DNA of 64,000 bases from an uncultured Phycisphaerales bacterium (GTDB lineage: Bacteria > Planctomycetota > Phycisphaerae > Sedimentisphaerales > Anaerobacaceae), in assembly GCA_963718665.1 (NCBI GenBank), contig OY970359.1, positions 1,440,001-1,504,000 of the forward strand. Direction: 5' to 3'. The notes beneath the pieces were generated by a model, which made no database searches, was not told where the DNA came from, and was given only the letters and a program-made list of their open reading frames with translations. This document shows, piece by piece, positions 17,107 through 39,597 of this stretch. The translations under genes were made by a program, and so were the position numbers. Each line of letters begins with the position of its first letter. Positions within the stretch are counted from its first letter, which is position 1.

Positions 17107-17871
17107 ACTTTTCTCCTTGGCGATAACGTTTAACGTCACGAAACCATGTAAACATAGCTTAAAATAGAAATCCGAGCTTTCATTGTCAATACTAATCCCG
17201 GCAAGATATAAGTTTTTTAAAAAACCAATAGCGTATGTAAAATAGAAAAGGAAGACCGACAAGTTTTATTACCCGGCTGCGGGAACAACAAAAGCATTCG
17301 AGGGCAAGCGGGTGGATAAGGAAGGTTAGCGGAAAATTGTTTACTGGAAACCAAATTTTCGACATAAAAAACAGCGGTGATGGGTACATTGAAAACTGAC
17401 GTAAATCCATTATTAGTAAGCAGTTATCAATAAATGCCCCTCATTTACCAAGTCCTTTTTTGTGTGTTTTTTGTGCCTTTTTGTGGCCATTTTTGACGTG
17501 TTTTTTTGTGGTCATTTTTGCCGTAACCTCTTTCCTTATATCGGCTTAAATTCTGGATATGAACGGTCGTATAAAACAAATGTATCAAACAGTTGTATGA
17601 TACAACTGTTATCCATTTTGCGCAGGTGTTTTTGACCATTTCCCAGAATTCTGAAAAAATTTTCTATTCCTTATTACATAAGCACTTATGCACTTTTGCG
17701 CCTGTGCTCTTTTTCGGATTTTTCGTCAAAAGCGCGAAGTTGCGCCATAGGGTAGAGGGACCTTAGTGGTTCTTCATGAGGTGATTAGCCCGCAGGCCCG
17801 CCTGCGGGTCATGAAAACCAAAATTAAAAACTTAGTGTCTTTGTGTCTTAGTGGTAGAAGAGGAGGAGAGT

Positions 17872-18474
17872 ATGGCAACGATTAACATAACGATACCCAA
17901 TTGGCTCGACCGCATTTGTGCCTGGCCGGTAACGGCCTATCGGCGATTCAAATACGGTTATCCATTTCGCAGGATTTATCTCGGCGAAGGCCAATGGACA
18001 ATCCTTGACCAGCAGGATTACTACCGTCTGAATAATTTCAGATGGTTTCTCAAAGGAAATGGAAAAAAATTCTATGCCCTCAGGAGCTTCAAAAATGATT
18101 CTGTCAGGACAAAAATGGTTTCAATGCACAAGGAAATAATGAATCCCCCGCCGGGTTTATTAGTTGACCATAGAAACGGCCTGTCATTGGATAATCGCAG
18201 AGAAAATCTTCGTATTGCAACACACGTTCAGAACTCCTGCAACACCCGAATAGATAAAACCAAAACGACCTCGCGGTTCAGAGGAGTTTATTTGCAGAAA
18301 CGCTCCGGCCGATGGATAGCAAGAATTTATTTTCAGGGCCAAAGAATTTGGCTTGGAATTTTCGATTCTGAAATCGAAGCCGCCCGTGCTTACGACCAAG
18401 CAGCAAGAATGTATCATAAGGAATTTGCACGTCTTAATTTTCCGGAGGAAAATTCACTATCCGCTACCCGCTGA
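17872..18474 (+). CDS. HNH endonuclease - AP2 DNA-binding domain protein (copy 1)
   Basis: [24 protein letters not shown]...RWIARI...[18 protein letters not shown]...ARLNF AP2; AGGAGGAG RBS. Confidence 0.9.
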
Positions 18475-26805: not shown

Positions 26806-27528
26806 ATGCAGGGCGATAGCAGCACTGGACGTGTGTGTGCGCTCGTCAAATTCCGAATAGGAGGGAGTTTGCGATTTTTGTCGCACGCGGAGACGATACG
26901 CGTTTTCCAGCGGGCCTGTGTGCGGGCGGGGGTGCAAATCGCGTATAGCCAGGGGTTTAATCCGCATCAGCGAATGTCGCTTGTTCCGCCTCGAAGCGTC
27001 GGGGTCGAATCAGATGATGACCTGCTATGCCTGTGGCTCAAGGAGGGCCAGACGGACCCCGTTAGAAAGAATCGTAATACAGAAATTTCCAATAAATCGC
27101 AGATTTCTAACGGGGCGGGGATTGACGCCGAAGCGCTGAAAAGTGTGCTGCCGGCCGGCATAGAAATCATTTCAGCAGAGGCCAGCGAGGCAAAAAATAT
27201 CCCTGAGCCGATTTCAGCAAGATATGTAATGAAGGTACAGGGACAGAAAATAGATGACGGAATCAGAAAACATATTTCAGAGATATTGGCAGGCGAAAAA
27301 GTTATAGTGAACCGGCGAACAGGCGAGGATGGATGGACCAAACCTGTTGATGTAAGGCCTTTTCTGGAAACAATCAAAGCCCAGGCGCAAGAATTTACAG
27401 TTGACTGCAAGATCAGTCCGGCGGGCACGATACGCGTTGACGAAATTCTCGGTTTGCTGCAATTGAAAACCGCGGATTTAACCGGACCGGTCAGGCGGAC
27501 AAACGTGAAATACACTGACAGACACTGA
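26806..27528 (+). CDS. Radical SAM-linked protein (DUF2344-like) carrying an in-frame 21-aa repeat insertion
   Basis: LRFLSH..T...FQRA..RAG..IAYSQGFNPH, SVGVES, VDVRP; upstream of rne/rng. Confidence 0.85.
   Translation: MQGDSSTGRVCALVKFRIGGSLRFLSHAETIRVFQRACVRAGVQIAYSQGFNPHQRMSLVPPRSVGVESDDDLLCLWLKEGQTDPVRKNRNTEISNKSQISNGAGIDAEALKSVLPAGIEIISAEASEAKNIPEPISARYVMKVQGQKIDDGIRKHISEILAGEKVIVNRRTGEDGWTKPVDVRPFLETIKAQAQEFTVDCKISPAGTIRVDEILGLLQLKTADLTGPVRRTNVKYTDRH
27057..27115 (+). mobile_element. 59-bp MITE-like element, copy 1 (intragenic, in frame)
   Basis: 12-bp TIR CCCCGTTAGAAA...TTTCTAACGGGG; flanks CGGA / CGGG. Confidence 0.88.
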
Positions 27529-27556: not shown

Positions 27557-27592
27557 CAATGAAAAACATTGATACTATGTGAGAAGAGACAA

Positions 27593-29118
27593 ATGCCAAG
27601 AGAAATGCTTATTAATGTAGCCGAGAGCGAAGAATGCCGCATAGCGGTTATGGAAAACGGCTCGCTTGAAGAACTATACGTGGAGCGGGCAAGCTCCACA
27701 AGATACGTGGGCAACATATACAAAGGCAGGGTCGTCAACGTCGAGTCGGCGATTCAGGCGGCCTTCGTGGATTTCGGAACCGGCAAAAATGGTTTCCTGC
27801 ACATCAGCGACCTGCACCCGCGATACTTCGCCGGCAAATCCGCCATCGACACCGAGGAAATCGGCAAACGACGGTCGCTCAACGAGCGCAAACCGATTCA
27901 GGCCTGCCTGCACAAGGGCGAAGAGGTAGTGGTGCAGGTTACAAAGGAAGGAATCAATACCAAGGGGCCGACGCTGAGCACCTATCTTGCGCTGCCCGGT
28001 AAATACTTAGTTATGATGCCCTGGATGGAAAAATCGGGCGTCTCCCACAAAATCGAGGACGAGCAGGAACGGATTCGACTGCGAACCCTCTTCGAGCAGA
28101 GCAATCCCCCGAAAGATATTGGCTTCATTATACGGACAGCCGCACAGGGAAGCTCAAAGCGGGACATACAAAACGATATGAAGTATCTGCGGCGACTCTG
28201 GGCCGCGATTGAAAAAAGAATTTCAGGCGCAAGACGCCGTCCGAATTGTATCAGGAATCAGACCTGGTCATCAGGACGTTGCGTGACATTTTCAATAACG
28301 ACATCAGCAGGATAATGTGCGATTCCGAAAGTATGGTTAAGCGGATTCGCGACTTCCTTTCGATAGCGTCGCCTCGTCTCAAACAGCGAGTGGTATATTA
28401 TGACGGCAAAGAGCCGTTGTTCCACAAATACAAAATTGAGCAGGAAATCGCCAAGGTCCACTCGCGGGTCGTGCCCCTCAAAACAGGCGGGTCGATTGTC
28501 ATCGAGCAGACCGAGGCGCTAGTCGCAATCGACGTAAACAGCGGAAAATTCCGCAAGCACACGGACGCTGAAGAAACCGCTTTCAAAACAAATATCGATG
28601 CGGCCGAGGAAATCGCAAGACAATTGCGTCTGCGAGACCTGGGCGGTCTCATTATCTGCGATTTCATCGATATGCGAAGCCCAAAGCATCGCAGGGAAGT
28701 GGAAAAGGTCTTCAGAATCGCAACTAGGCCTGACCGCGCAAGGTCCCGGGTTCTGCACATAAGCAGCTTCGGCCTCATCGAAATGACCCGGCAAAGGATG
28801 CGGCCTTCGCTGCAATCCAGCACGTATCTGGCCTGCCCGAACTGCGCCGGCAGCGGCTATGTCAAAAGCCACGAATCCTGCGCAATTGAACTTATCCGGC
28901 TGCTTCACCTGGCTTCCTCAAAAGAAACGGTCAAAAAAGTTGAGTTGTTTGTCTCAAACGAAGTGGCGGATTATCTCCAGAACGAAAAAAGAGCGGCGAT
29001 TGCACATATTGAACAGACCAGCAACAAGCGGGTGATTATTCATTCGTCGCCCCAATATGCCGGTGAACGCTCTGAAATTGTCTGTTATAACGACAGGGGC
29101 AGTGTGATCAAACTATAG
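27593..29118 (+). CDS. Ribonuclease E/G family; apparent frameshift near 28227
   Basis: GNIYKGRV, QAAFVDFG, IDVNSG, IARQLRLRDLGGLIICDFIDM, CPNCAGSG across two frames. Confidence 0.93.
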
Positions 29119-30202: not shown

Positions 30203-30316
30203 CCCCGTTAGAAAAAAATTGTAATACGGAACTTTATGATAAATCGCAGCTCTCTAACGGGGTTAGAAAAAATGGTAATACAGAAATTTCCAATAAATCG
30301 CAGATTTCTAACGGGG
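30203..30316 (+). mobile_element. Head-to-tail dimer of the 59-bp element (copies 2 and 3), intergenic
   Basis: 30203-30262 full copy (60 bp); 30262-30316 copy lacking the leading CCCC. Confidence 0.85.
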
Positions 30317-30360
30317 CAGGCCTGACAAAAAGATAATATTGAGAAAGAGCAAAAAATAAA

Positions 30361-32406
30361 ATGCTGCTGCATTCGAGAAGGTTCACAATCTGGCTCGTTT
30401 CATTCCTGGCGGTGCTGGTCGTCTATTTTATTTACAACCGCCTGAATAGGACCCCGACTATACCAACGGACATAACTACGACGCCGGCGGGGCAGCTCGC
30501 CAACGTGCGCGATTCAAATGTCAATATCGGAAAAGTCGGAGACGTCGGCGTCGGCATCATTAAAAACGCACGCTATATCACCCTTAACGCCCAAAAACAG
30601 GTCGAAAGAGAGTTCGGATTCAAAGAGCTCCTTCACCAGGACGGCAACAACTGGGAAATCGAAAAGCCATATATGAATATCTACCGCCGAAGCTTCAACT
30701 GCTCGCTTACGGGCGAGCGGGCAATAGTCGCGGTGGAAATGGCGGGCGGCCGGGTAACGCCCAAACAAGGTATGCTGATGGGCAACGTTATTATCCGGAT
30801 TTTACCCAAACAAAAAGATGCCGCCGGCGAAATGACTATTTATCTTGATGATATCTCTTTTTCCGCGGACAAATCGTTGTTTTCGACGGCAGGGCCAATC
30901 GAGCTTGTCTCGGAAAACATCCGGATGACCGGCACAGGCGTGGAAATTGTTTATAACGGCGACGACGAGCGCCTCGAACGGCTGCAAATAACAAAACTGC
31001 AGAGCTTGCGTATAAAAAAATGGTCCCAGGGAACGGTTTTGCGGTCAACGCCGGACGCCAACGCAAATAACCAAAAAGGCGAAAGCGAACAAGCATCCAA
31101 ACGCGGGAAATACTACCAATGCACGCTCGACAAAGATGTCAGGATTGAAACGCCGAATGAACGGCTGCTTGCTGACGCCCTTTTGATAAACGATATCTTC
31201 ATGCAGGACAGCTCGGATGAGCAGGCAGGACAGGGATCCTCACCCGATGAAAACTTTGCCCCGATTCCAGCCAGCAACAGACCACAGGCAGCCGTTTCGG
31301 AGGAATCGCCCAGCGATATCACAATCACCTGCGACGGCGGCATTATAGTTACCCCGATGGGTACATCAGCCGAGAAGAAATCGCCCAAACAGCAAACCAC
31401 TTATGCCGAAATTATCGCCCAGCAGGATGCCAACGCCTCTCCGGTCGGCAAAACCACCTTCAGGGGCGTAAACGTTACCTACAGCGCGATAACGGGCGAG
31501 GCAGTCGCAATCGGCCCTTCAAGCATTGCGTTTGACGTGAACGAAAAAACAGAGAACGGCGCAGGCAAACCGGGAACCGTCAGAATGACCTCCCGCCGAC
31601 AGGCCGTGTTCTCGCCCGCCTCAAACAAGAGCACATTCGAAGGCGATTGCCGCTGCACGGTCTTACAGGAGGAGGGTGCAATACTTCAACAGTATATAGT
31701 TCTGGCCGACAAGCTCGAAATCGACCTGGTTAAGAAAAATACAAACAATGACTCCGGACAGGCAATGGATGTCAATCGCATGATTGCTACCGGCCCGGGT
31801 GTGCACTTAGCCAGCACAAAAAAAACCGGCAACAAGCTGTTGACGGGTATGGAGCTTAAATGCGCCTCGGTTAATTACGATACAAACGACGGCAATTTCT
31901 TCGCGACAGGGCCGGGCCTGATAAAAGTGGATAATTCGCAGACCGATGAGCCGCAGGAAAATCTCGACAGGTTCAGCTTGCGGCGAAAAAGTTACGCCCT
32001 TATGCGGAACTTCGACTGGCTTTCCTACGCAGGCCAAAGCAAACACTTAGTAGCTGATTCGAAGGGCGGTTCGCTTTTAGTTGATTATTTCCCGATCGTC
32101 GAAGGTCACGGCAACGAAAAGGTTTCCATAACCGCATCGCATGTCGAAGCCGATATCGCCGATATGCCGACCGGGCGAACGGAGCTTAAAGATATGCAGG
32201 CAACAGGCGCGGTTACTTACGAAGACAAGGACACGCAGGTCATAGGCAACGAATTTATCTACGATGCCAACACCGCCTTAATTGATATCAAAGGCGACAA
32301 AGTCCGTCCCTGCATTTTCAACGGTGCAGTTATCGACGCCGTGCGATACGATACAAAAACCGGCAAGTGGAATACGCACCTCAAAGGCCCGGGGGCGATA
32401 AGGTAA
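30361..32406 (+). CDS. Membrane-anchored beta-rich protein, probably LptC/LptA(OstA)-like LPS transport protein
   Basis: One N-terminal TM, repeated beta-jellyroll-like segments; directly downstream of kdsD. Confidence 0.55.
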   Translation: MLLHSRRFTIWLVSFLAVLVVYFIYNRLNRTPTIPTDITTTPAGQLANVRDSNVNIGKVGDVGVGIIKNARYITLNAQKQVEREFGFKELLHQDGNNWEIEKPYMNIYRRSFNCSLTGERAIVAVEMAGGRVTPKQGMLMGNVIIRILPKQKDAAGEMTIYLDDISFSADKSLFSTAGPIELVSENIRMTGTGVEIVYNGDDERLERLQITKLQSLRIKKWSQGTVLRSTPDANANNQKGESEQASKRGKYYQCTLDKDVRIETPNERLLADALLINDIFMQDSSDEQAGQGSSPDENFAPIPASNRPQAAVSEESPSDITITCDGGIIVTPMGTSAEKKSPKQQTTYAEIIAQQDANASPVGKTTFRGVNVTYSAITGEAVAIGPSSIAFDVNEKTENGAGKPGTVRMTSRRQAVFSPASNKSTFEGDCRCTVLQEEGAILQQYIVLADKLEIDLVKKNTNNDSGQAMDVNRMIATGPGVHLASTKKTGNKLLTGMELKCASVNYDTNDGNFFATGPGLIKVDNSQTDEPQENLDRFSLRRKSYALMRNFDWLSYAGQSKHLVADSKGGSLLVDYFPIVEGHGNEKVSITASHVEADIADMPTGRTELKDMQATGAVTYEDKDTQVIGNEFIYDANTALIDIKGDKVRPCIFNGAVIDAVRYDTKTGKWNTHLKGPGAIR

Positions 32407-32588
32407 TTGCCGATTTTCGATTGCCGATTTAGCCGCAAAAAAGTGCAAAATTCACAAAAGCATAAACGTAAATCGGGGTTTATCCGCCTTTTGACCATTA
32501 CTCGAGCTTTTTATAAGGCGTCTAACTCTAATTATTACAAAGGGTTATGCTAAAATAGTAAATTTTTTGAAAAGTGGTTATATTTATA

Positions 32589-32616
32589 TTGACTTATAAT
32601 TTTATTTTTGTATAAT
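32589..32616 (+). promoter_or_regulatory. Near-consensus sigma70 promoter upstream of HNH-AP2 copy 2
   Basis: TTGACT at 32589 and TG-TATAAT ending at 32616. Confidence 0.7.
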
Positions 32617-32789
32617 TCAAACTCGCACTGGCCGGTGGTGGGCTGGCCAGGCAGTTCGCGCAGCACCCGCCTTCGCCGAAAGCTACGGCGGGCGGGGCGC
32701 AAGATGTGACCCAGCAGGGCAAGGTAGCACCAAACATTAAGGCACTTGGTGATTTTGTGTCTTAGTGGCGAATTAAAGGAGATGGGGTC

Positions 32790-33368
32790 ATGTCTGTTAA
32801 TTTAAATTTAAGGGTTCCCGAATGGTTAGACAAAATCTGCGCAAGTCCATTGATTGTTTATCGCCGGCTGAAATATGGTTTCTCGTTCCGCAGAATTTAT
32901 CTTGGGCAGAACGAATACACAATCGTCGAACCAGCGGATTACTATGCCTTCAGTAAATACAACTGGATTTTAATAAGATGCAATAAAAAACCTTACGCTA
33001 TCAGCGAATTTAAAATCGGGCGTAAAAAAACTAAGAGGGTGTATTTGCACAGGGCAATTATGAAGCCCAGAGGACGGAAACTTGTTGACCACAGAAACTG
33101 CGACGGCTTAGATAATCGCAGGGCGAACCTGCGCTTGGCTACTTATGCTCAAAATCTCGCTAACAGGGCAAAAACAAAATCGAAGACAACTTCGAAATAT
33201 CGCGGGGTTTCTTTTAACAAGGGCGGCAAGAAATGGGGTGCCACAATTAGCTGGCGACATAAGGCAAGATGGCTTGGCCGATTTGAAAACGAAATCGACG
33301 CCGCAAAAGCATACGACAAGGCCGCACGTAAATACTATAAGGATTTCGCACGGTTGAATTTTCCGTAG
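32790..33368 (+). CDS. HNH endonuclease - AP2 domain protein (copy 2)
   Basis: VDHRNCDGLDNRRANL; SKYRGV...WLGRFENEIDAAKAYDKAA...ARLNFP; colinear with 17872..18474. Confidence 0.9.
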   Translation: MSVNLNLRVPEWLDKICASPLIVYRRLKYGFSFRRIYLGQNEYTIVEPADYYAFSKYNWILIRCNKKPYAISEFKIGRKKTKRVYLHRAIMKPRGRKLVDHRNCDGLDNRRANLRLATYAQNLANRAKTKSKTTSKYRGVSFNKGGKKWGATISWRHKARWLGRFENEIDAAKAYDKAARKYYKDFARLNFP

Positions 33369-33464
33369 CCACAGATTACACAGATTGCACAGATTTATTT
33401 TTGACGCTGATTAACGCAGATTGCGCAGATTTTTCACCACGAAGCGGGACGAAGAAACACAAAG
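33368..33464 (+). repeat. Cluster of 9-bp-period repeats
   Basis: cacagatta-cacagattg-cacagattt; cgctgatta-acgcagattg-cgcagattt; cacgaag..gacgaag..cacaaag. Confidence 0.8.
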
Positions 33465-33560
33465 GTTTCGGTCAGTGATGCGTACTTAACGCGGCCTTTG
33501 CTCTCCCTAAGGGATGCGCAAGGCCCACGTCTCGTCCGCGGGTCTAACTTCGTTATCCCC

Positions 33561-33610
33561 CGGCAATTCTGCCGGAACTGGCCGAAACAAATTAAGCCGA
33601 GCGAAACACA
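33561..33610 (+). repeat. 50-bp structured repeat (partner of 8455..8504)
   Basis: CGGCAATTCTGCCGGAACTGGCCGAAACAAATTAAGCCGAGCGAAACACA. Confidence 0.7.
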
Positions 33611-33658
33611 CTGTCCGCTCCACGCTGATTATTCCTTTGACGCCGAGAACGTCAGGAT

Positions 33659-36604
33659 TTATAGGAATAAATTTCTCAACAACCCTCTTACTTTCTCCGC
33701 TTCTTTATTGTTTCCCTGCGATTCAAATAACTTTATTGCTATTTCAAGTTCATTCTTGGCTTCCTCTTTTCTTCCAATTTTAGAAAGAAAGACACCATAA
33801 TCTCTGTCATTTTTGGGGTAATTATCTACCGGATAGTTAGCCACAACTCTTGTTGTTTCTTTGTATTCTTTTTCTGCTTCTTCGTATTTTCCTAGTTTTC
33901 CTAATGTATTTGCTAAATGCCTATGGGCTGAAGGGTACATATCATTTAGTTCTATTGCTTTTCTATATTCTTTTTCGGCTTCCTTATATAGTTTTAATTT
34001 ATCCTCATCGTTTCGTGCTCTATCACCTAATTCCTCTTGTAAAATTCCTAGATTTTTATGAGCTAAGGCACTGTTTGGGTCTAATCTTAATGCGTCTACA
34101 AGAGCATTTTTTGCCTCGTCAAACTTGCCTGATCTTATCAATGCTCTTGCGCGGTGGGCATGAATATCTGGAAGTTGACTACAAAGATACTCAAATTGGG
34201 TACGAACCTTACTATCATCGGGGCGTATTTTTAGTATTTCTTCAAATTGTCGTGCCGCTTCCACCTCTCTTCCGCGATATGATAAGAAATATTCATAAGT
34301 AGTACGCGCCTTAACATTCTTGGGATTTTTTTCTATCACTTTATTGTAGCAATCTTCCGCTTCTTTGTCCCTATTTAACTTTTCTAATAAAACTCCAAGA
34401 CAAATAAGCGCGTCTTCGTAGTCTGGAGTTATTTCTAGAGCATTTCTGTACTCTTCTTCAGCTTTTTCGTATAGTTTTTTAGCCTCATCACGTCTATCTT
34501 TCTTAACTTCCTCGTTCCCCAGAGTTACTAACAGATATCCAAGATTATTATGCGCTTCTGCATAATCCCGTTTTGATTCTATAGCTTTCCTATATTCTCT
34601 TTCTGCCTCGTCATATCTTTTTAAGTTCGTTAATGCATAACCGAGAGCGAGATGGGCTTCAGCATAATTAGGATTGATATCGAGCGCTTTTCTATGTTCT
34701 TTTTCGGCTTCTTCATAATTTTTTAGATTTGCTAATAAACGACCAAGATTGACATAGGCAACAATATAATCTGGAGATGCTTTTATAGCTTTTTTGTATT
34801 CCTCTTCCGCTTCTTTCCACCTTCTCAGTTTTGCCAATAAATACCCCAAATTGTTATGAGCAGAAGGATACTCTGGCTTTAATCTTATCGCCTCCCTATA
34901 CTCTTTCTCCGCTTCTTCATCTTTTCCTAATTTGTTTGCCAATAAGTGTCCAAGGAGATTATGTGCAAAAGGAGATTCAGTATTTAACTCTATTGCCTTC
35001 TTATATTCCTTTTCCGCTTCTTCATCTTTTCCCAATTTTCCCAAGGCATACGCAAGACAATGATGTGCCGATGGATAACTTTCGTTTATCTTTATTGCTG
35101 TTCTATGTTTTTCCACCGCTTCTTGATATAACCCTCTTGCTTCATCGCATTCTCCTTTAATTTCTCCTAAGCTGGTTAGCACATACCCAAGATTGTTATG
35201 GTTTGCAGCATAAGAAGGGGCTATCTTTATTGCTTCTCTATACTCGTCTATTGCTTTTTTATATAGTTCTTCCGCTTCGTTATATTTCCCCTTGGCCTCC
35301 TCAGATTCTCCCAATTTTGTTGATGCATACCCAAGACCGTTATGTGCAAGAGCATAATTGGGATATATCCTCAACGCTGCTAAATGACAATCTTTAGCAT
35401 GAACGAAATCATTTTTATAGAGAAATCCATTCCCAAGATAGAATAAACTCCCTGGATCGTTCACCCCAATAAGCATATTCTTTAATTTCATTAAATCATT
35501 TATTGAAGGATCATAATCATAGACGCAGATATCTAAATATGCTGCGTAAATATCAATAATGCCTTCATCCATTGTGATGAGACTTCCCTCCTTCAAGTTA
35601 TTGATAATTTCATCCCAAATATATTTTTTTGTTTTTTCAGGCGGTAACTCGAAGATATTTTCGCAAACATCCTTAACGCGACTCTCTTTATAAAGGAATA
35701 AATTTCCCCCCCTTAGTAACTTTAAAGCTCTTAAAACGACTTTACCGTCTTTTGCACTTTTATATCTCTCTTTCATATCTCCCAAGTCCAAAGTAATAGA
35801 CCCGGGGGTCCCATCAAACTGTTCTGGGTTCCACTTAAAATTTTTATCTTCTTTCTTGATATCTTCTAGCAGCATCTTCCGTTCATTTTCACTAATCACT
35901 TCCAGTTCTATGGTTGTGAATTGTCTATACATTTCTGTTTTGACTAAATCCAATTCTTCTCCAGTACGGCAAGTAGCGACTACGATTAATTTTTTACTTT
36001 TCTTCTTTAAACTATCGATTACATACTCGGTCTTCTTATCAACAAAACGTTCAAGATCATCGAGAAATAGGATGAGGTTCTTATTACTCCAAGGAGGGAT
36101 TTTAATTTTTTCTATCTCTGCCTCTTCGGGTTTTGGTTTGATTACTGAGAAATTTTCAAGTTTCTTTATTGCCTCATAGGACGCTCTTGTTTTTCCTATT
36201 TTTGGTTTGCCAGTAATCAAAATATATTCTTCATTTTTAAGGGAATTCTCTATTGTCGTATCGCTTTTTCGTGGCCTGTGGGCTTTTTTATAACCTTGAA
36301 TCTTGAAGTTTTCAGGTGTAAGTTTCTTAACTGGTTCATAAAATTCCCAAATCTTTCTAAATTCATCCTCTTTTTCTTTTTTCCAAGCATAAATCGTGAT
36401 CACAAAAAACACAGGAACAAGGGCAACCAAACCTATCATATGTATAGAGCAAAACTTGATGAGGTTAGATATCATCTCTTCTTTCCATTCGTGAGGAATA
36501 CGCTCATATATGATATTGCCGGAAATGGCCACGATGAGGCCAACCACGATACTCCCAAATATAAAACTCCCCATTAATTTTATGATTTTCCACAGACCTG
36601 CCAT
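33659..36604 (-). CDS. 2TM - STAND-like P-loop NTPase - TPR array protein (NLR-like)
   Basis: Two N-terminal hydrophobic helices; Walker A GKPKIGKT, Walker B LILFLDD, IVVATCR, GTP (GxP); more than ten TPRs (AHNNLG...EAEEEYKKAI...P); AT-rich. Confidence 0.85.
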   Translation of the reverse strand: MAGLWKIIKLMGSFIFGSIVVGLIVAISGNIIYERIPHEWKEEMISNLIKFCSIHMIGLVALVPVFFVITIYAWKKEKEDEFRKIWEFYEPVKKLTPENFKIQGYKKAHRPRKSDTTIENSLKNEEYILITGKPKIGKTRASYEAIKKLENFSVIKPKPEEAEIEKIKIPPWSNKNLILFLDDLERFVDKKTEYVIDSLKKKSKKLIVVATCRTGEELDLVKTEMYRQFTTIELEVISENERKMLLEDIKKEDKNFKWNPEQFDGTPGSITLDLGDMKERYKSAKDGKVVLRALKLLRGGNLFLYKESRVKDVCENIFELPPEKTKKYIWDEIINNLKEGSLITMDEGIIDIYAAYLDICVYDYDPSINDLMKLKNMLIGVNDPGSLFYLGNGFLYKNDFVHAKDCHLAALRIYPNYALAHNGLGYASTKLGESEEAKGKYNEAEELYKKAIDEYREAIKIAPSYAANHNNLGYVLTSLGEIKGECDEARGLYQEAVEKHRTAIKINESYPSAHHCLAYALGKLGKDEEAEKEYKKAIELNTESPFAHNLLGHLLANKLGKDEEAEKEYREAIRLKPEYPSAHNNLGYLLAKLRRWKEAEEEYKKAIKASPDYIVAYVNLGRLLANLKNYEEAEKEHRKALDINPNYAEAHLALGYALTNLKRYDEAEREYRKAIESKRDYAEAHNNLGYLLVTLGNEEVKKDRRDEAKKLYEKAEEEYRNALEITPDYEDALICLGVLLEKLNRDKEAEDCYNKVIEKNPKNVKARTTYEYFLSYRGREVEAARQFEEILKIRPDDSKVRTQFEYLCSQLPDIHAHRARALIRSGKFDEAKNALVDALRLDPNSALAHKNLGILQEELGDRARNDEDKLKLYKEAEKEYRKAIELNDMYPSAHRHLANTLGKLGKYEEAEKEYKETTRVVANYPVDNYPKNDRDYGVFLSKIGRKEEAKNELEIAIKLFESQGNNKEAEKVRGLLRNLFL

Positions 36605-36725
36605 TTTATCCTCCGGTATTCAATTATAAGGTGCTCCGTAGGCAATCGCGCACAACTAAAATAACCGAACGCTTCATGCTCCTAATTAGCATATTTCCTC
36701 TGCAACTATTCTGCCGTTCACCTAC

Positions 36726-36806
36726 TCACCTGTCAAGGGCGGCCTTGAGAACGTCGTCGGCTTTTTTAACAAAGACAAACTTCACCCCTTTTTTCGCCTC
36801 AAGATT
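36726..36806 (-). pseudogene. Orphan fragment resembling the extreme C-terminus of Lon protease
   Basis: NLEAKKGVKFVFVKKADDVLKAALDR*, with an in-frame stop directly upstream. Confidence 0.55.
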
Positions 36807-36892
36807 TCATAATACCGACGTTACCGTATTACTCGCTGCCCTTCGGGAAGATAAATCCTGTTATCCTATCAAAAAACTATGTAGCAAAAACG

Positions 36893-37636
36893 TCAGCGGC
36901 AGAGGGCTTTTAGTTCGGAGAGGGACAGTTCGTTTAGATGCTCAATAACTTTATCCGCGGGTTTTAAGTGTTCAGCGGCGTAAGTGTTGGTAATGGCGAC
37001 CGTTCGCATGCCGGCGGCCTTCGCGGCCTCAAGGCCCCAGTGCGAATCCTCAATCACAACACAATTTTCCGGCTTGATTGACTTGTGCATCCTCTTGTCG
37101 AGCAGTTTCAGAGCCAGCAGAAAACCTTCGGGGTCGGGTTTGCCATTTTCAACCTGTTCGGCTGAAACAATCACCTCGAAATAACTGCGCAACAACGCAC
37201 CCTTAAGAATCATTTCGATTTCAGGCAGCAACGCGCCGGAGCAGATTCCAATCGGGATTTTATTGCCGGCGAGCATATTAAGAAACTGGGGCACGCCCTC
37301 GATTATGCCCGCCCCGTTAGAAATCTGCGATTTATCGGAAACTTTTGTATTACGATTTTTTCTAACGGGGCCCGCCTCGGTCGCCGCCATTTCTTTGAAG
37401 AGGTTCGCCTTTTCGCCGAGCAATTTTTCGAACTGCTGATTCGATAAAGACAGCTTTCCCTCTTTGTTAACAATTCGCAGAAGCTCCTGGTCTGAAAGCC
37501 CGAGGAACCTGTCATAATAATCGCGTATCGATAACTGGTAATTGAATTTGGTCAGCGTGCGGTTGAACGCCTGATAGTGCAGTTTTTCGGAATCCACGAG
37601 GACGCCATCGAAATCAAATATAACAGCTTCGAGCAT
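36893..37636 (-). CDS. HAD-superfamily phosphatase (beta-PGM/CbbY-like) carrying an in-frame 21-aa repeat insertion
   Basis: IFDFDGVLVDSE, GKPDPEGF, VIEDS..GLEAAKAAGM. Confidence 0.93.
   Translation of the reverse strand: MLEAVIFDFDGVLVDSEKLHYQAFNRTLTKFNYQLSIRDYYDRFLGLSDQELLRIVNKEGKLSLSNQQFEKLLGEKANLFKEMAATEAGPVRKNRNTKVSDKSQISNGAGIIEGVPQFLNMLAGNKIPIGICSGALLPEIEMILKGALLRSYFEVIVSAEQVENGKPDPEGFLLALKLLDKRMHKSIKPENCVVIEDSHWGLEAAKAAGMRTVAITNTYAAEHLKPADKVIEHLNELSLSELKALCR
37312..37370 (-). mobile_element. 59-bp MITE-like element, copy 4 (intragenic, in frame)
   Basis: Perfect 12-bp TIRs; exact 4-bp direct repeat CCCG on both sides (+ strand). Confidence 0.9.
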
Positions 37637-37695
37637 ATCAACACCTTTGGCCACAGAGATTTCCGAAGCGGGCTCGTCGTTTCGCTCCGTGTTTA

Positions 37696-37796: not shown

Positions 37797-39597
37797 TTAT
37801 TGTTCGGGGACGGGGCCAATCAGGGCGGCAAAGTCCGTGAACGAGGATTTGTCGCCCGAACATATTAACTGGATAAGCGCCGCGTTTTTCGGCGAGTTTT
37901 TAGTGATGAACCGTCGGGCGACAATCGCCTTGCGTTTTTTCATAGGCATCGTCTGCTCTTTTGCTTCGTCTGAATCCTCGACCGCGACGGTCATCTCGAC
38001 CTTCGTGCTTGCGTAATCGCAGAACAAATACCCCACGATTAAATCCATCGCGATATCGACCAGCGGTCTTCCGTAGAGGTCCATATACTCCGCGCCCTGC
38101 TGTTTGACAAACGCGACGGCTGAGAATAGCTGTTTTGTTCCTTCGGCTAATTTGGCGAGCAGGTCTTTCAATTCGGGGTCATATTCTTTCTGCGCCAGCT
38201 CCGCAAGGTACTTTTCCGCTGTGCCGCTGCAAACGCCGCGGACCGCCGCGACAATTTGCAACTGAGAAGTGCCTTCGTAAATCGTCGTGATTCGGGCGTC
38301 GCGCGCATGCCGCTCGACCGCGTAATCGCGCATATAACCCGAACCGCCGAGAACCTGGATTGAGTCATAACTGACGCGGTTTGCCATTTCAGAGCATATA
38401 TATTTGCTCATCGGGGTCAGCATCGACGCGAGCCGGTCAAATCGGCGCGTCTGCTCTTTCAGCGATTTCAGTTTCTCTTTATCCGTAGGCGGGTTTAATT
38501 CGAGCTGCTTTTCACAGGAGATATTTATATCGACGACACGGGACGTTTCATAAAGCATCGCCCGTCCCGCCTCAATCGAGATTTTCATATCAATCAGCAT
38601 GTCGCGGACGGCAGGCAGCTTTTGTATTGCTGTGCCGAATTGTTTTCTGCTCGACGCGTAATCTCTCGCCACGCGATACGCCGCTTCGGCGATACCCAAT
38701 GACTGGCCGGCGATTCCGATACGCGCGCCGTTCATCAATGCCATAACGTATGTAACTAATCCGCGCTGCCTTTCGCCGATTAGCTGGCAGGGGGTGTTAT
38801 CGAAGAATATTTCGCAGGTGGGGCTGCCGTGAATGCCTAACTTGTCTTCAAGCCGGCGGATATGCACGGTCGGGCCTCTGTCGCATACGAACAAGCTGAG
38901 TCCCAGTCCGCCTGTGCGGTCCGGCTCGCTTCTGGCTAACACGAGCAGAACTTCGCCGCAGCCATTGGTGATAAATCTCTTAACACCGTGCAACAACCAG
39001 TTGCCGTTGTTATCCTGGAACGCGCGCAGCTTGACGGCCTGCAAATCCGAACCGGCATCCGGCTCAGTAAGCACCATCGCGCCAGTAATTTTGCCGGCGG
39101 CAAAATCATGCAGGTATTTTTGTTTTATTTCCTCGGACGCGAAGGCATCGATTGTCCCCGCGATACCCTGTAACCCGAATATATTCATAAGCGAGGCGTC
39201 GGCGCGAGACGATTTCGGTCGCCATCGAATAGACGAGATTCGGGAAATTAATCCCGCCGAAACGGTGAGGCAATGTAAAACCCATCACCTCCGCCTTGGC
39301 TAATTTGTCCATTGATTCGGCGATTCCTTTTGCGTAACTCACTGAGCCGTCGGCGTTGAGGGTACTGCCTTCCCTGTCAACCGATTCAGCCCGCGGCGCG
39401 ATAAAGTCCCCGCTCAACTGACCGATAGAATCGAGAACCATCTCATAATTGCGTATCGCTTCATCGGCGTCGGCGGGCGCGGAATCGAACTGCGAAGCGA
39501 ATTTGAAATCCTCTTCACACAATTTAGCGAGAGCGCCCAGGTCGATGTGTTTGAATAAAAATCGTATGTCGTCGTTATCAGTGTAAAAATTTGGCAT
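37797..39597 (-). CDS. Acyl-CoA dehydrogenase; apparent frameshift near 39203
   Basis: MVLTEPDAGSDL, GVKRFITNG, KLGIHGSPT, QVLGGSGY, RDARITTIYEGTSQLQ; N-terminus in ORF 39106..39597. Confidence 0.93.

Follow-up and report, generated by a model that had tools for sequence, protein, structure and literature searches.

In the resistosomes of plant coiled-coil NLR (nucleotide-binding leucine-rich repeat) receptors, oligomerisation of a nucleotide-binding oligomerisation domain (NOD) of the STAND (signal transduction ATPases with numerous domains) class gathers the N-terminal helices into a membrane channel. The bacterial sensors Avs1-4, Avs7-24 and bNACHT are encoded by single genes and follow a tripartite logic, in which the N-terminal output varies and is followed by a STAND NOD and C-terminal sensor repeats; the Avs effectors that have been tested are for the most part enzymes such as nucleases, SIR2 and TIR, and transmembrane (TM) segments figure in the architectures given for bNACHT and for proteins with Avs7/Dsr1-type sensors. 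Avs5 (AVAST type 5) is composed of Sir2, nSTAND3 and TPR/Sel1 modules, according to the Avs5 preprint, where TPR stands for tetratricopeptide repeat. Here we describe a gene with a related layout in a 64,000-nucleotide stretch of the genome of an uncultured Phycisphaerales bacterium (hereafter the window; contig OY970359.1, positions 1,440,001 to 1,504,000). The gene (P0001; 33659-36604, minus strand) encodes two TM helices, a STAND NTPase and a TPR array, and we refer to it as the STAND-TPR gene. Because a gene of this layout lies here on acquired DNA, at a variable site where sister species carry restriction and other defence genes, our leading explanation is an NLR-like anti-phage sensor, namely a horizontally acquired, membrane-anchored STAND NTPase with cytoplasmic TPRs that acts as a single-gene NLR/Avs-like sensor of phage or mobile DNA, and we consider the chances that it is correct to be about even.

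The open reading frame (ORF) runs from an ATG for 981 amino acids with no internal stop, is the longest of its neighbourhood and is present as a single copy in the 2.61-Mb genome; its length agrees with that of homologues (897-992 amino acids). The start codon is preceded at a distance of 5 nt by a Shine-Dalgarno sequence, GGAGG, read from the sequence at 36610-36614 (the parts of the gene and its signals are all on the minus strand). A full-length AlphaFold model was obtained with a pLDDT of 87.9 and a pTM of 0.70. Hydropathy, AlphaFold and Pfam agree on the layout that an earlier note, made from the letters of the window, had proposed, i.e. two TM helices, a P-loop NTPase and a TPR array. 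The NOD comprises nucleotide-binding, helical and winged-helix-like domains (residues 86-365; 35510-36349), and the Walker A, Walker B, T-x-R and GxP motifs that the same note had pointed out are present and are conserved in an alignment of 32 diverse family members (A1). In Walker A, GKPKIGKT (residues 132-139; 36188-36211), Gly132, Gly137 and Lys138 are invariant in A1, as is the adjacent Arg140. Walker B, LILFLDDLE (residues 177-185; 36050-36076), contains Asp182 and Asp183, both at least 90% conserved, with Asp182 invariant in a further family alignment (A3). The T-C-R motif (residues 211-213; 35966-35974) is placed at the end of a beta-strand in a position that we take to be that of sensor 1; Cys212 is at least 90% conserved in A1, and Ala210, Thr211, Cys212 and Arg213 are nearly invariant in A3. 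The G-T-P-G motif (residues 265-268; 35801-35812) occupies a GxP-like position, with Thr266 and Gly268 at least 90% conserved in A1 and Pro267 and Gly268 invariant in A3.

We assign the NTPase to the STAND class on its modelled fold and its motifs. An AlphaFold model built on the family alignment had a pLDDT of 89.3, and a Foldseek search of the NOD against the PDB returned EfAvs5 (SIR2-STAND) as the best match with an E-value of 1.6e-8, followed among others by Avs4 (8dgf_B), the AVAST5 filament, MalT, SAMD9, CED-4 and Sr35 (7xx2_A). The NTPase aligns with Apaf-1, NLRC4 and MalT over ~290 residues, and this alignment, together with Avs5 as the top Foldseek match, indicates a STAND NTPase of the nSTAND3-like kind, nearest to the nSTAND3 group of Avs5. 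A protein language-model atlas likewise placed it among nSTAND3 and nSTAND5 clusters. The hallmarks of the STAND superfamily are all found, with Walker A and B, a NOD that exceeds the AAA+ core and C-terminal repeats that form a superstructure, and the outcome that the earlier note had named as speaking against its proposal, an NTPase outside the STAND class, did not materialise. On sequence evidence the assignment is weak. With Pfam, nSTAND3 (PF20720) scored 21.8 bits when the whole protein was the query and 22.5 bits with residues 1-420, below the cut-off of 27.2 bits, and nSTAND5 scored 16.8 bits. Among 32 short relatives, 18 match nSTAND3 (E <= 0.01, best 3.1e-8) and 10 match nSTAND5, and since 18 of the 32 match nSTAND3 while the protein itself scores below threshold, we regard it as kin of nSTAND3 and not as a filed member. 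Sequence comparison of residues 1-420 with PDB chains gave no useful match, and in a comparison of the A1 profile with the PDB the TPR matches swamped the result.

The closest of the described systems by NTPase fold is therefore Avs5, although Avs5 has a SIR2 domain where the STAND-TPR protein has a two-helix hairpin, the sequence identity between the two is ~16-17% and the sensor of the STAND-TPR protein is a long regular TPR superhelix. No SIR2 domain was found in the protein by Pfam or PADLOC, so it does not have the domain composition of Avs5. Avs1-4, Avs7-24 and bNACHT share its tripartite organisation but belong to different STAND clades, with no sequence-level match to it, and their tested Avs effectors differ from its hairpin. 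The comparison with ZAR1 and Sr35 is an analogy of working only; Sr35 matches the NOD, whereas the N-termini are not homologous, and the helices of the plant receptors insert upon activation while the hairpin is predicted to be embedded at all times. Tmn-type NTPases are described as membrane-anchored defence proteins with a membrane or ion effect upon sensing a phage protein; they are of the YobI/KAP-like family and not STAND and have no TPR sensor. The STAND-TPR protein gave no PADLOC match named Tmn or YobI, and its fold matches are to STAND proteins. MalT and the PH0952-type STAND-TPR structure 6mfv, which rank among the best structural matches, differ in being soluble, in having DNA-binding or other cellular-regulation outputs without a hairpin and in not lying on acquired islands. 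It is probable, judging by architecture, that the protein works like an Avs/bNACHT-type sensor, yet it belongs to no named Avs family. The earlier note had proposed an Avs-type sensor; the NLR-like architecture holds and the gene is an accessory one at a hotspot, but membership of a named Avs family is not supported, given the PADLOC result and an nSTAND3 score below the cut-off.

The N-terminal helices were predicted from Kyte-Doolittle hydropathy with a 19-residue window and a threshold of 1.6. TM helix 1 spans approximately residues 11-33 (36506-36574; hydropathy peak at residues 14-32, AlphaFold helix 2-33) and TM helix 2 approximately residues 51-73 (36386-36454; hydropathy peak at residues 51-69, AlphaFold helix 38-85). 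In the model, the second helix continues unbroken to residue 85 and leads directly into the first beta-strand of the NTPase (residues 86-91). Lysines precede the first TM helix and seven Lys/Arg residues follow the second, a distribution that suggests that the N- and C-termini are both cytoplasmic. We then counted TM helices ahead of Walker A in relatives; of 188 relatives 184 have a Walker A and six N-terminally cut ones were left out, giving 178, and by this crude threshold 93 have at least two helices, 68 have one and 17 have none. The hairpin is thus the usual N-terminal module of the family and not a one-off fusion. It is also the sole part of the protein that could serve as an output; no other domain is present, and no partner gene is conserved. 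The C-terminal part forms a TPR superhelix of 32 helices, or ~16 repeats, in the full-length AlphaFold model (residues 368-980; 33665-35503). Pfam TPR families match with E-values of 1e-40 to 1e-70 (TPR_11 4e-70, TPR_2 3e-59), with scores of 231.7 bits for TPR_11 (cut-off 26.8), 192.7 for TPR_2 and 170.2 for TPR_1 and 10-12 matched stretches each. In a full-length Foldseek search the OGT TPR superhelix gave the top matches, and TPR proteins dominated the result, which added nothing on the NOD.

The gene lies in a 4.5-kb low-GC insert (32407-36892) defined by synteny with congeners. The insert lies where two core genes face each other with their 3' ends, an LptC-like gene on one side (30361-32406, plus strand) and a HAD hydrolase gene on the other (36893-37654, minus strand); in two congeners (G017 and G015) these genes are only 10-50 bp apart compared with 4.5 kb in the window. 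In a survey of 23 congeners, three had the two genes on separate contigs and were left out; among the 20 assessable ones, the site is empty in 12 (gap of 10-64 bp) and holds other inserts of 1.0-7.8 kb, with a GC content of 0.39-0.45, in eight (G002, G012, G013, G009, G003, G022, G005 and G020; loci L071-L077 and L009). The STAND-TPR gene itself has a GC content of 0.34-0.40 compared with 0.50-0.54 in the flanks and 0.492 in the genome, and falls below the 5th percentile of the 2-kb windows of the genome (0.429), in keeping with the AT-richness remarked on in the earlier note. That note had also placed the gene between repeats. Synteny shows the insertion, but bracketing repeats were not confirmed: neither the gene nor the insert is flanked by direct or inverted repeats, and comparison of the junctions with the unoccupied site in G017 and G015 revealed no target-site duplication. 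The repeats nearby are a 102-bp periodicity within the gene that encodes the TPRs, a stretch associated with an HNH-AP2 gene on one side and a 60-bp element in the HAD gene.

Convergent with the STAND-TPR gene, the insert carries an HNH-AP2 endonuclease-like gene of 192 codons (32790-33368, plus strand; Pfam AP2 1.8e-6, HNH_3 5.3e-6), whose orthologues, with 47-85% identity, are found in six of the seven congener inserts that were fetched, beside cargo that varies from genome to genome. This cargo comprises a Type II restriction-modification (RM) pair in G022 (restriction endonuclease 1.6e-157, methyltransferase 1.2e-68), PDC-S13, a Bro-N domain protein, in G020 (2.8e-111), an RT-Protease_XI/LmuA-like protease domain protein (3e-22) with an AAA protein in G003, and weak matches to PifA-like and PDC-S09 proteins in G009. 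Four further sets have no PADLOC match, in G002 (414 and 188 amino acids), G012 (538 and 93), G013 (337) and G005 (227, 179 and 102), and are candidate unknown defence genes; the 337-residue protein of G013 has a region in common with cargo proteins of G009 and G003. A site that is empty in 12 congeners and holds differing inserts, a Type II RM system among them, in eight is a variable hotspot that carries defence systems, which is the setting expected of a defence-island gene; of the arguments from context, this one speaks most strongly for a role of the STAND-TPR gene in defence.

The gene has an accessory distribution. It was found in none of 40 relatives, 23 of them congeners, and when 300 other genomes from the phylum were searched with the NOD alone, 10 gave matches, all with <=37% identity and confined to three families. 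Much closer to it are metagenome proteins with 64-68% identity over residues 1-420, and homologues are encoded in a Cryosericum genome (50% identity) and in the genome of the archaeon Methanoregula (46%). Closer relatives outside the phylum and the failure to find the gene in the 40 relatives point to horizontal acquisition from a low-GC donor, and the family has been transferred between bacteria and archaea. The family is large; an exhaustive phmmer search with residues 1-420 returned 780 cluster representatives with E <= 1e-3, 393 with E <= 1e-10 and 50 with E <= 1e-30, so that the phrase 'compact member' of the earlier note is misleading. In Pfam, PADLOC and NCBIfam the family has no name other than 'TPR protein', and public annotation can mislead, with one homologue recorded as 'Cell division coordinator CpoB'. 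Our search of the accessible literature found no description of a 2TM-STAND-TPR family, and the family may already be among the 589 STAND clades of the 2026 survey PMC13581612. In four of the 11 genome loci (L016, L018, L019 and L020; 23-25% identity to the STAND-TPR protein and thus distant) a cytosolic Ser/Thr kinase domain replaces the hairpin ahead of the same NTPase and TPRs, a form also found in two of 150 listed representatives (P0155 and P0173). NLR-like proteins have modular N-terminal outputs, and the exchange of hairpin for kinase in this sister clade agrees with that. Immediately downstream of the kinase-STAND-TPR gene of L016 and of L019 there is a Peptidase_MA_2 gene on the opposite strand.

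The loci of homologues, gathered with an alignment of closer relatives (A2), were inspected over ~5 kb for all 11 genome loci and for 16 of the 40 metagenome loci; the remaining 24 were left out because their contigs ended too close to the gene for neighbours to be seen. Once loci with identical surroundings had been merged there were 23 groups, and in five of these RM or defence-candidate genes lie within ~5 kb. These are a Type I methyltransferase/specificity (S) fusion with a PDC-M41A/B pair directly upstream (L010), PDC-S27 (L011), a Type IIG enzyme and an LmuB-like ATPase (L041, L042 and L036), an adjoining Type II RM system (L055), and a methyltransferase, HEC-06 and a GajB-like helicase (L058 and L059). 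No ORF of at least 50 amino acids within 2 kb is common to any two of 13 loci compared and, as there is no shared neighbour, the STAND-TPR gene appears to work alone, as the solo gene that the earlier note had taken it for.

In light of this layout we propose how the protein may act. At rest it would be a closed, ADP-bound monomer that the hairpin holds in the inner membrane, and both of its termini would be cytoplasmic. When the TPR superhelix captures a conserved foreign protein, the NOD would open, ATP could bind and the protein could oligomerise. Several TM hairpins, each continuing as a single helix into its NTPase, would thereby be gathered, and their clustering would permeabilise the membrane or depolarise it and so halt the infected cell, as in abortive infection. 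Both the anti-phage activity of the protein and the effector role of its hairpin are proposed here by analogy with solved STAND and Avs proteins.

Several observations weigh against an immune sensor, and most of them favour the most serious alternative, which we think rather unlikely, that the protein is tethered to the membrane as a regulator or scaffold of the STAND class and serves the cell outside defence; the earlier note had likewise allowed for a signalling role. The hairpin would then be an anchor, the TPRs would have a host protein as their ligand, and the protein, by oligomerising in response to nucleotide, would build or control a complex close to the membrane, in the manner of MalT-, AfsR- and PknK-type STAND proteins. 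The TM region is conserved least, with a median identity of 30% to 30 full-length close homologues, and keeps no conserved polar residues and little beyond its hydrophobicity, and such weak conservation would suit a plain anchor as well as an effector. The TPR array is conserved to the same extent as the NOD (median identity 64% compared with 67%), and so is not hypervariable; by its sequence and model it is regular and OGT-like, and does not resemble a fast-evolving or irregular sensor. The kinase-bearing relatives resemble signalling proteins, MalT and 6mfv rank high in the structural comparison, and the clustering of the matches within the phylum in three families could mean vertical inheritance of a cellular function. 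In the same direction, 14 of the 23 groups have metabolic or housekeeping neighbours only and no defence gene, and two Zixibacteria species retain the homologue beside ispG/GcpE among housekeeping genes. Four more groups are ambiguous, with HerA and NurA (L023), a PD-(D/E)XK protein (L018) and radical SAM proteins (L024 and L026). The enrichment in the remaining five hinges on the null that is chosen; with the background rate of 0.0153 for known systems within 5 kb, given in PMC13581612, five of 23 yields P = 2e-5, and with a lax rate of 0.10 it yields P = 0.07. A single PADLOC match or a PDC candidate is a looser criterion than a complete known system and, because the matches counted include such candidate families and single hidden Markov model (HMM) matches, we consider the enrichment suggestive but not proven. 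No named defence model fits the protein: PADLOC returned only PrimPol, TPR and PDC-M71B for the whole protein, all driven by the TPRs, and nothing below an E-value of 0.47 for residues 1-420, NCBIfam likewise returned only TPRs, and nSTAND3 stayed below its cut-off. The PADLOC collection used, PADLOC-DB 2.0, contains AVAST models. Finally, a search of 2.9 million viral contigs (176 pattern matches, none confirmed) and tblastn searches of 50,697 phage and 72,556 plasmid records brought up no homologue. Against a regulatory role, however, the gene is not core in this genome and was found in none of the 40 relatives; it sits on a low-GC insert at a site that elsewhere holds RM and defence candidates; its relatives with 46-50% identity in another phylum and in an archaeon are hard to reconcile with a host-specific partner; and no conserved partner gene was found at the 13 loci. 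As an accessory gene acquired at a hotspot, this copy fits such a role poorly.

The association with HNH-AP2 genes raises a further explanation, that the STAND-TPR gene is cargo serving an HNH-AP2-marked mobile unit, for example through an exclusion or addiction function, and is not an immune sensor of the host. An HNH-AP2 orthologue accompanies variable cargo in this genome as well as in the six congener inserts, and the HNH-AP2 gene is multi-copy: the genome has 27 such loci, whose proteins are 38-57% identical to that encoded at 32790-33368. For 22 of these loci, a 2-kb window under the 5th GC percentile lies within 6 kb, compared with 29% of random positions (n=2000), and HNH-AP2 genes may therefore mark many variable islands. 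Pfam scans, however, found an HNH-AP2 neighbour at none of the homologue loci of other genomes, and within the genus the HNH-AP2 gene is constant while the cargo changes, so that the two do not form one fixed unit. We regard a function for the mobile unit as improbable, and it would in any case overlap with defence, because to exclude competing elements is itself to defend. We hold it to be still more improbable, indeed very much so, that the gene is a recently acquired passenger that is unexpressed or already decaying. A frameshifted variant of 630 amino acids (P0002) is present in the protein collection, identical through residue 597 and out of frame thereafter as a result of one extra A (AAA here, AAAA needed; 34810-34825, minus strand), there are other split ORFs in this genome, and no RNA run is listed for the stretch. 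Yet 981 codons are in frame over a length like that of the homologues, every catalytic motif is kept and the Shine-Dalgarno sequence is strong. Short-read contigs from runs X1 and X2 support the intact A-run; they show no differences from the gene, are without gaps over 34283-34904, and one of them spans the 5' end of the gene into the HAD gene, although the agreement is not independent since the runs may derive from the sample behind the assembly.

Further features of the region were recorded alongside the gene. A promoter-like sequence, TTGACA-17-CAGAAT, lies ~100 nt 5' of the ATG (36708-36736) and a terminator-like hairpin ~40 nt past the stop codon (33599-33620), both on the minus strand and both consensus matches only; promoter-like sites are no more numerous in the region than in shuffled controls. 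A second HNH-AP2 copy is present in the window at 17851-18474 (plus strand). Between the HNH-AP2 and STAND-TPR genes, a 133-bp stretch (33462-33592) is 84% identical to positions 1059084-1059216 of the genome, which adjoin another HNH-AP2 copy (1059352-1059849), and as the stretch stands beside two HNH-AP2 copies, the gene may travel with flanking non-coding DNA. An ORF of 182 amino acids in the G020 insert was considered as an HNH-AP2 relative and rejected, as no relation was found. The ~60-bp element in the HAD gene has palindromic ends, CCCCGTTAGAAA...TTTCTAACGGGG, and seven copies of at least 50 bp in the genome, of which those in the window are at 37312-37371, 27057-27115 and 30262-30320. 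The copy within the HAD ORF leaves the frame open, another lies within a DUF2344 ORF, and the HAD genes of G017, G015 and G020 are without the element, the insertion being ~63 nt; it resembles the in-frame palindromic elements known from other bacteria. Two overlapping ORFs each represent RNase E/G (27569-28315 and 28246-29118) and an acyl-CoA dehydrogenase (39106-39597 and 37797-39188), and these are frameshifts, either genuine or assembly errors, in a single-contig genome. On a metagenome contig (L021), a homologue with 60% identity is broken up into two ORFs, one of 143 and one of 772 amino acids, and is flanked by IS200-like and IS110-like transposase genes and by runs of small ORFs of 130-150 amino acids.

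Taken together, the observations on this locus document a hotspot between two core genes at which the HNH-AP2 gene persists and the cargo changes. We also put forward a broader proposal, with the caution that as a whole it is possible but somewhat short of probable: 2TM-NOD-TPR proteins would be a large family of bacterial and archaeal single-gene immune receptors, of at least 780 clusters at 50% identity, in which the hairpin itself is the death effector, already inserted in the membrane and bundled by ligand-driven oligomerisation into an assembly that breaches it, as a counterpart of the resistosome channel, and whose genes are shuffled together with RM systems and other cargo through hotspots in this genus that are marked by free-standing HNH-AP2 genes. 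Should the protein instead have a signalling role, the interest would be lower, and the family would still deserve a name. If the proposal is true, a STAND family whose output could not be simpler, one pair of membrane helices, would be widespread, in hosts as distant as bacteria of several phyla and a methanogenic archaeon. It would then offer a compact model for how NLR-type oligomerisation leads to membrane damage, a question shared with the plant resistosomes.

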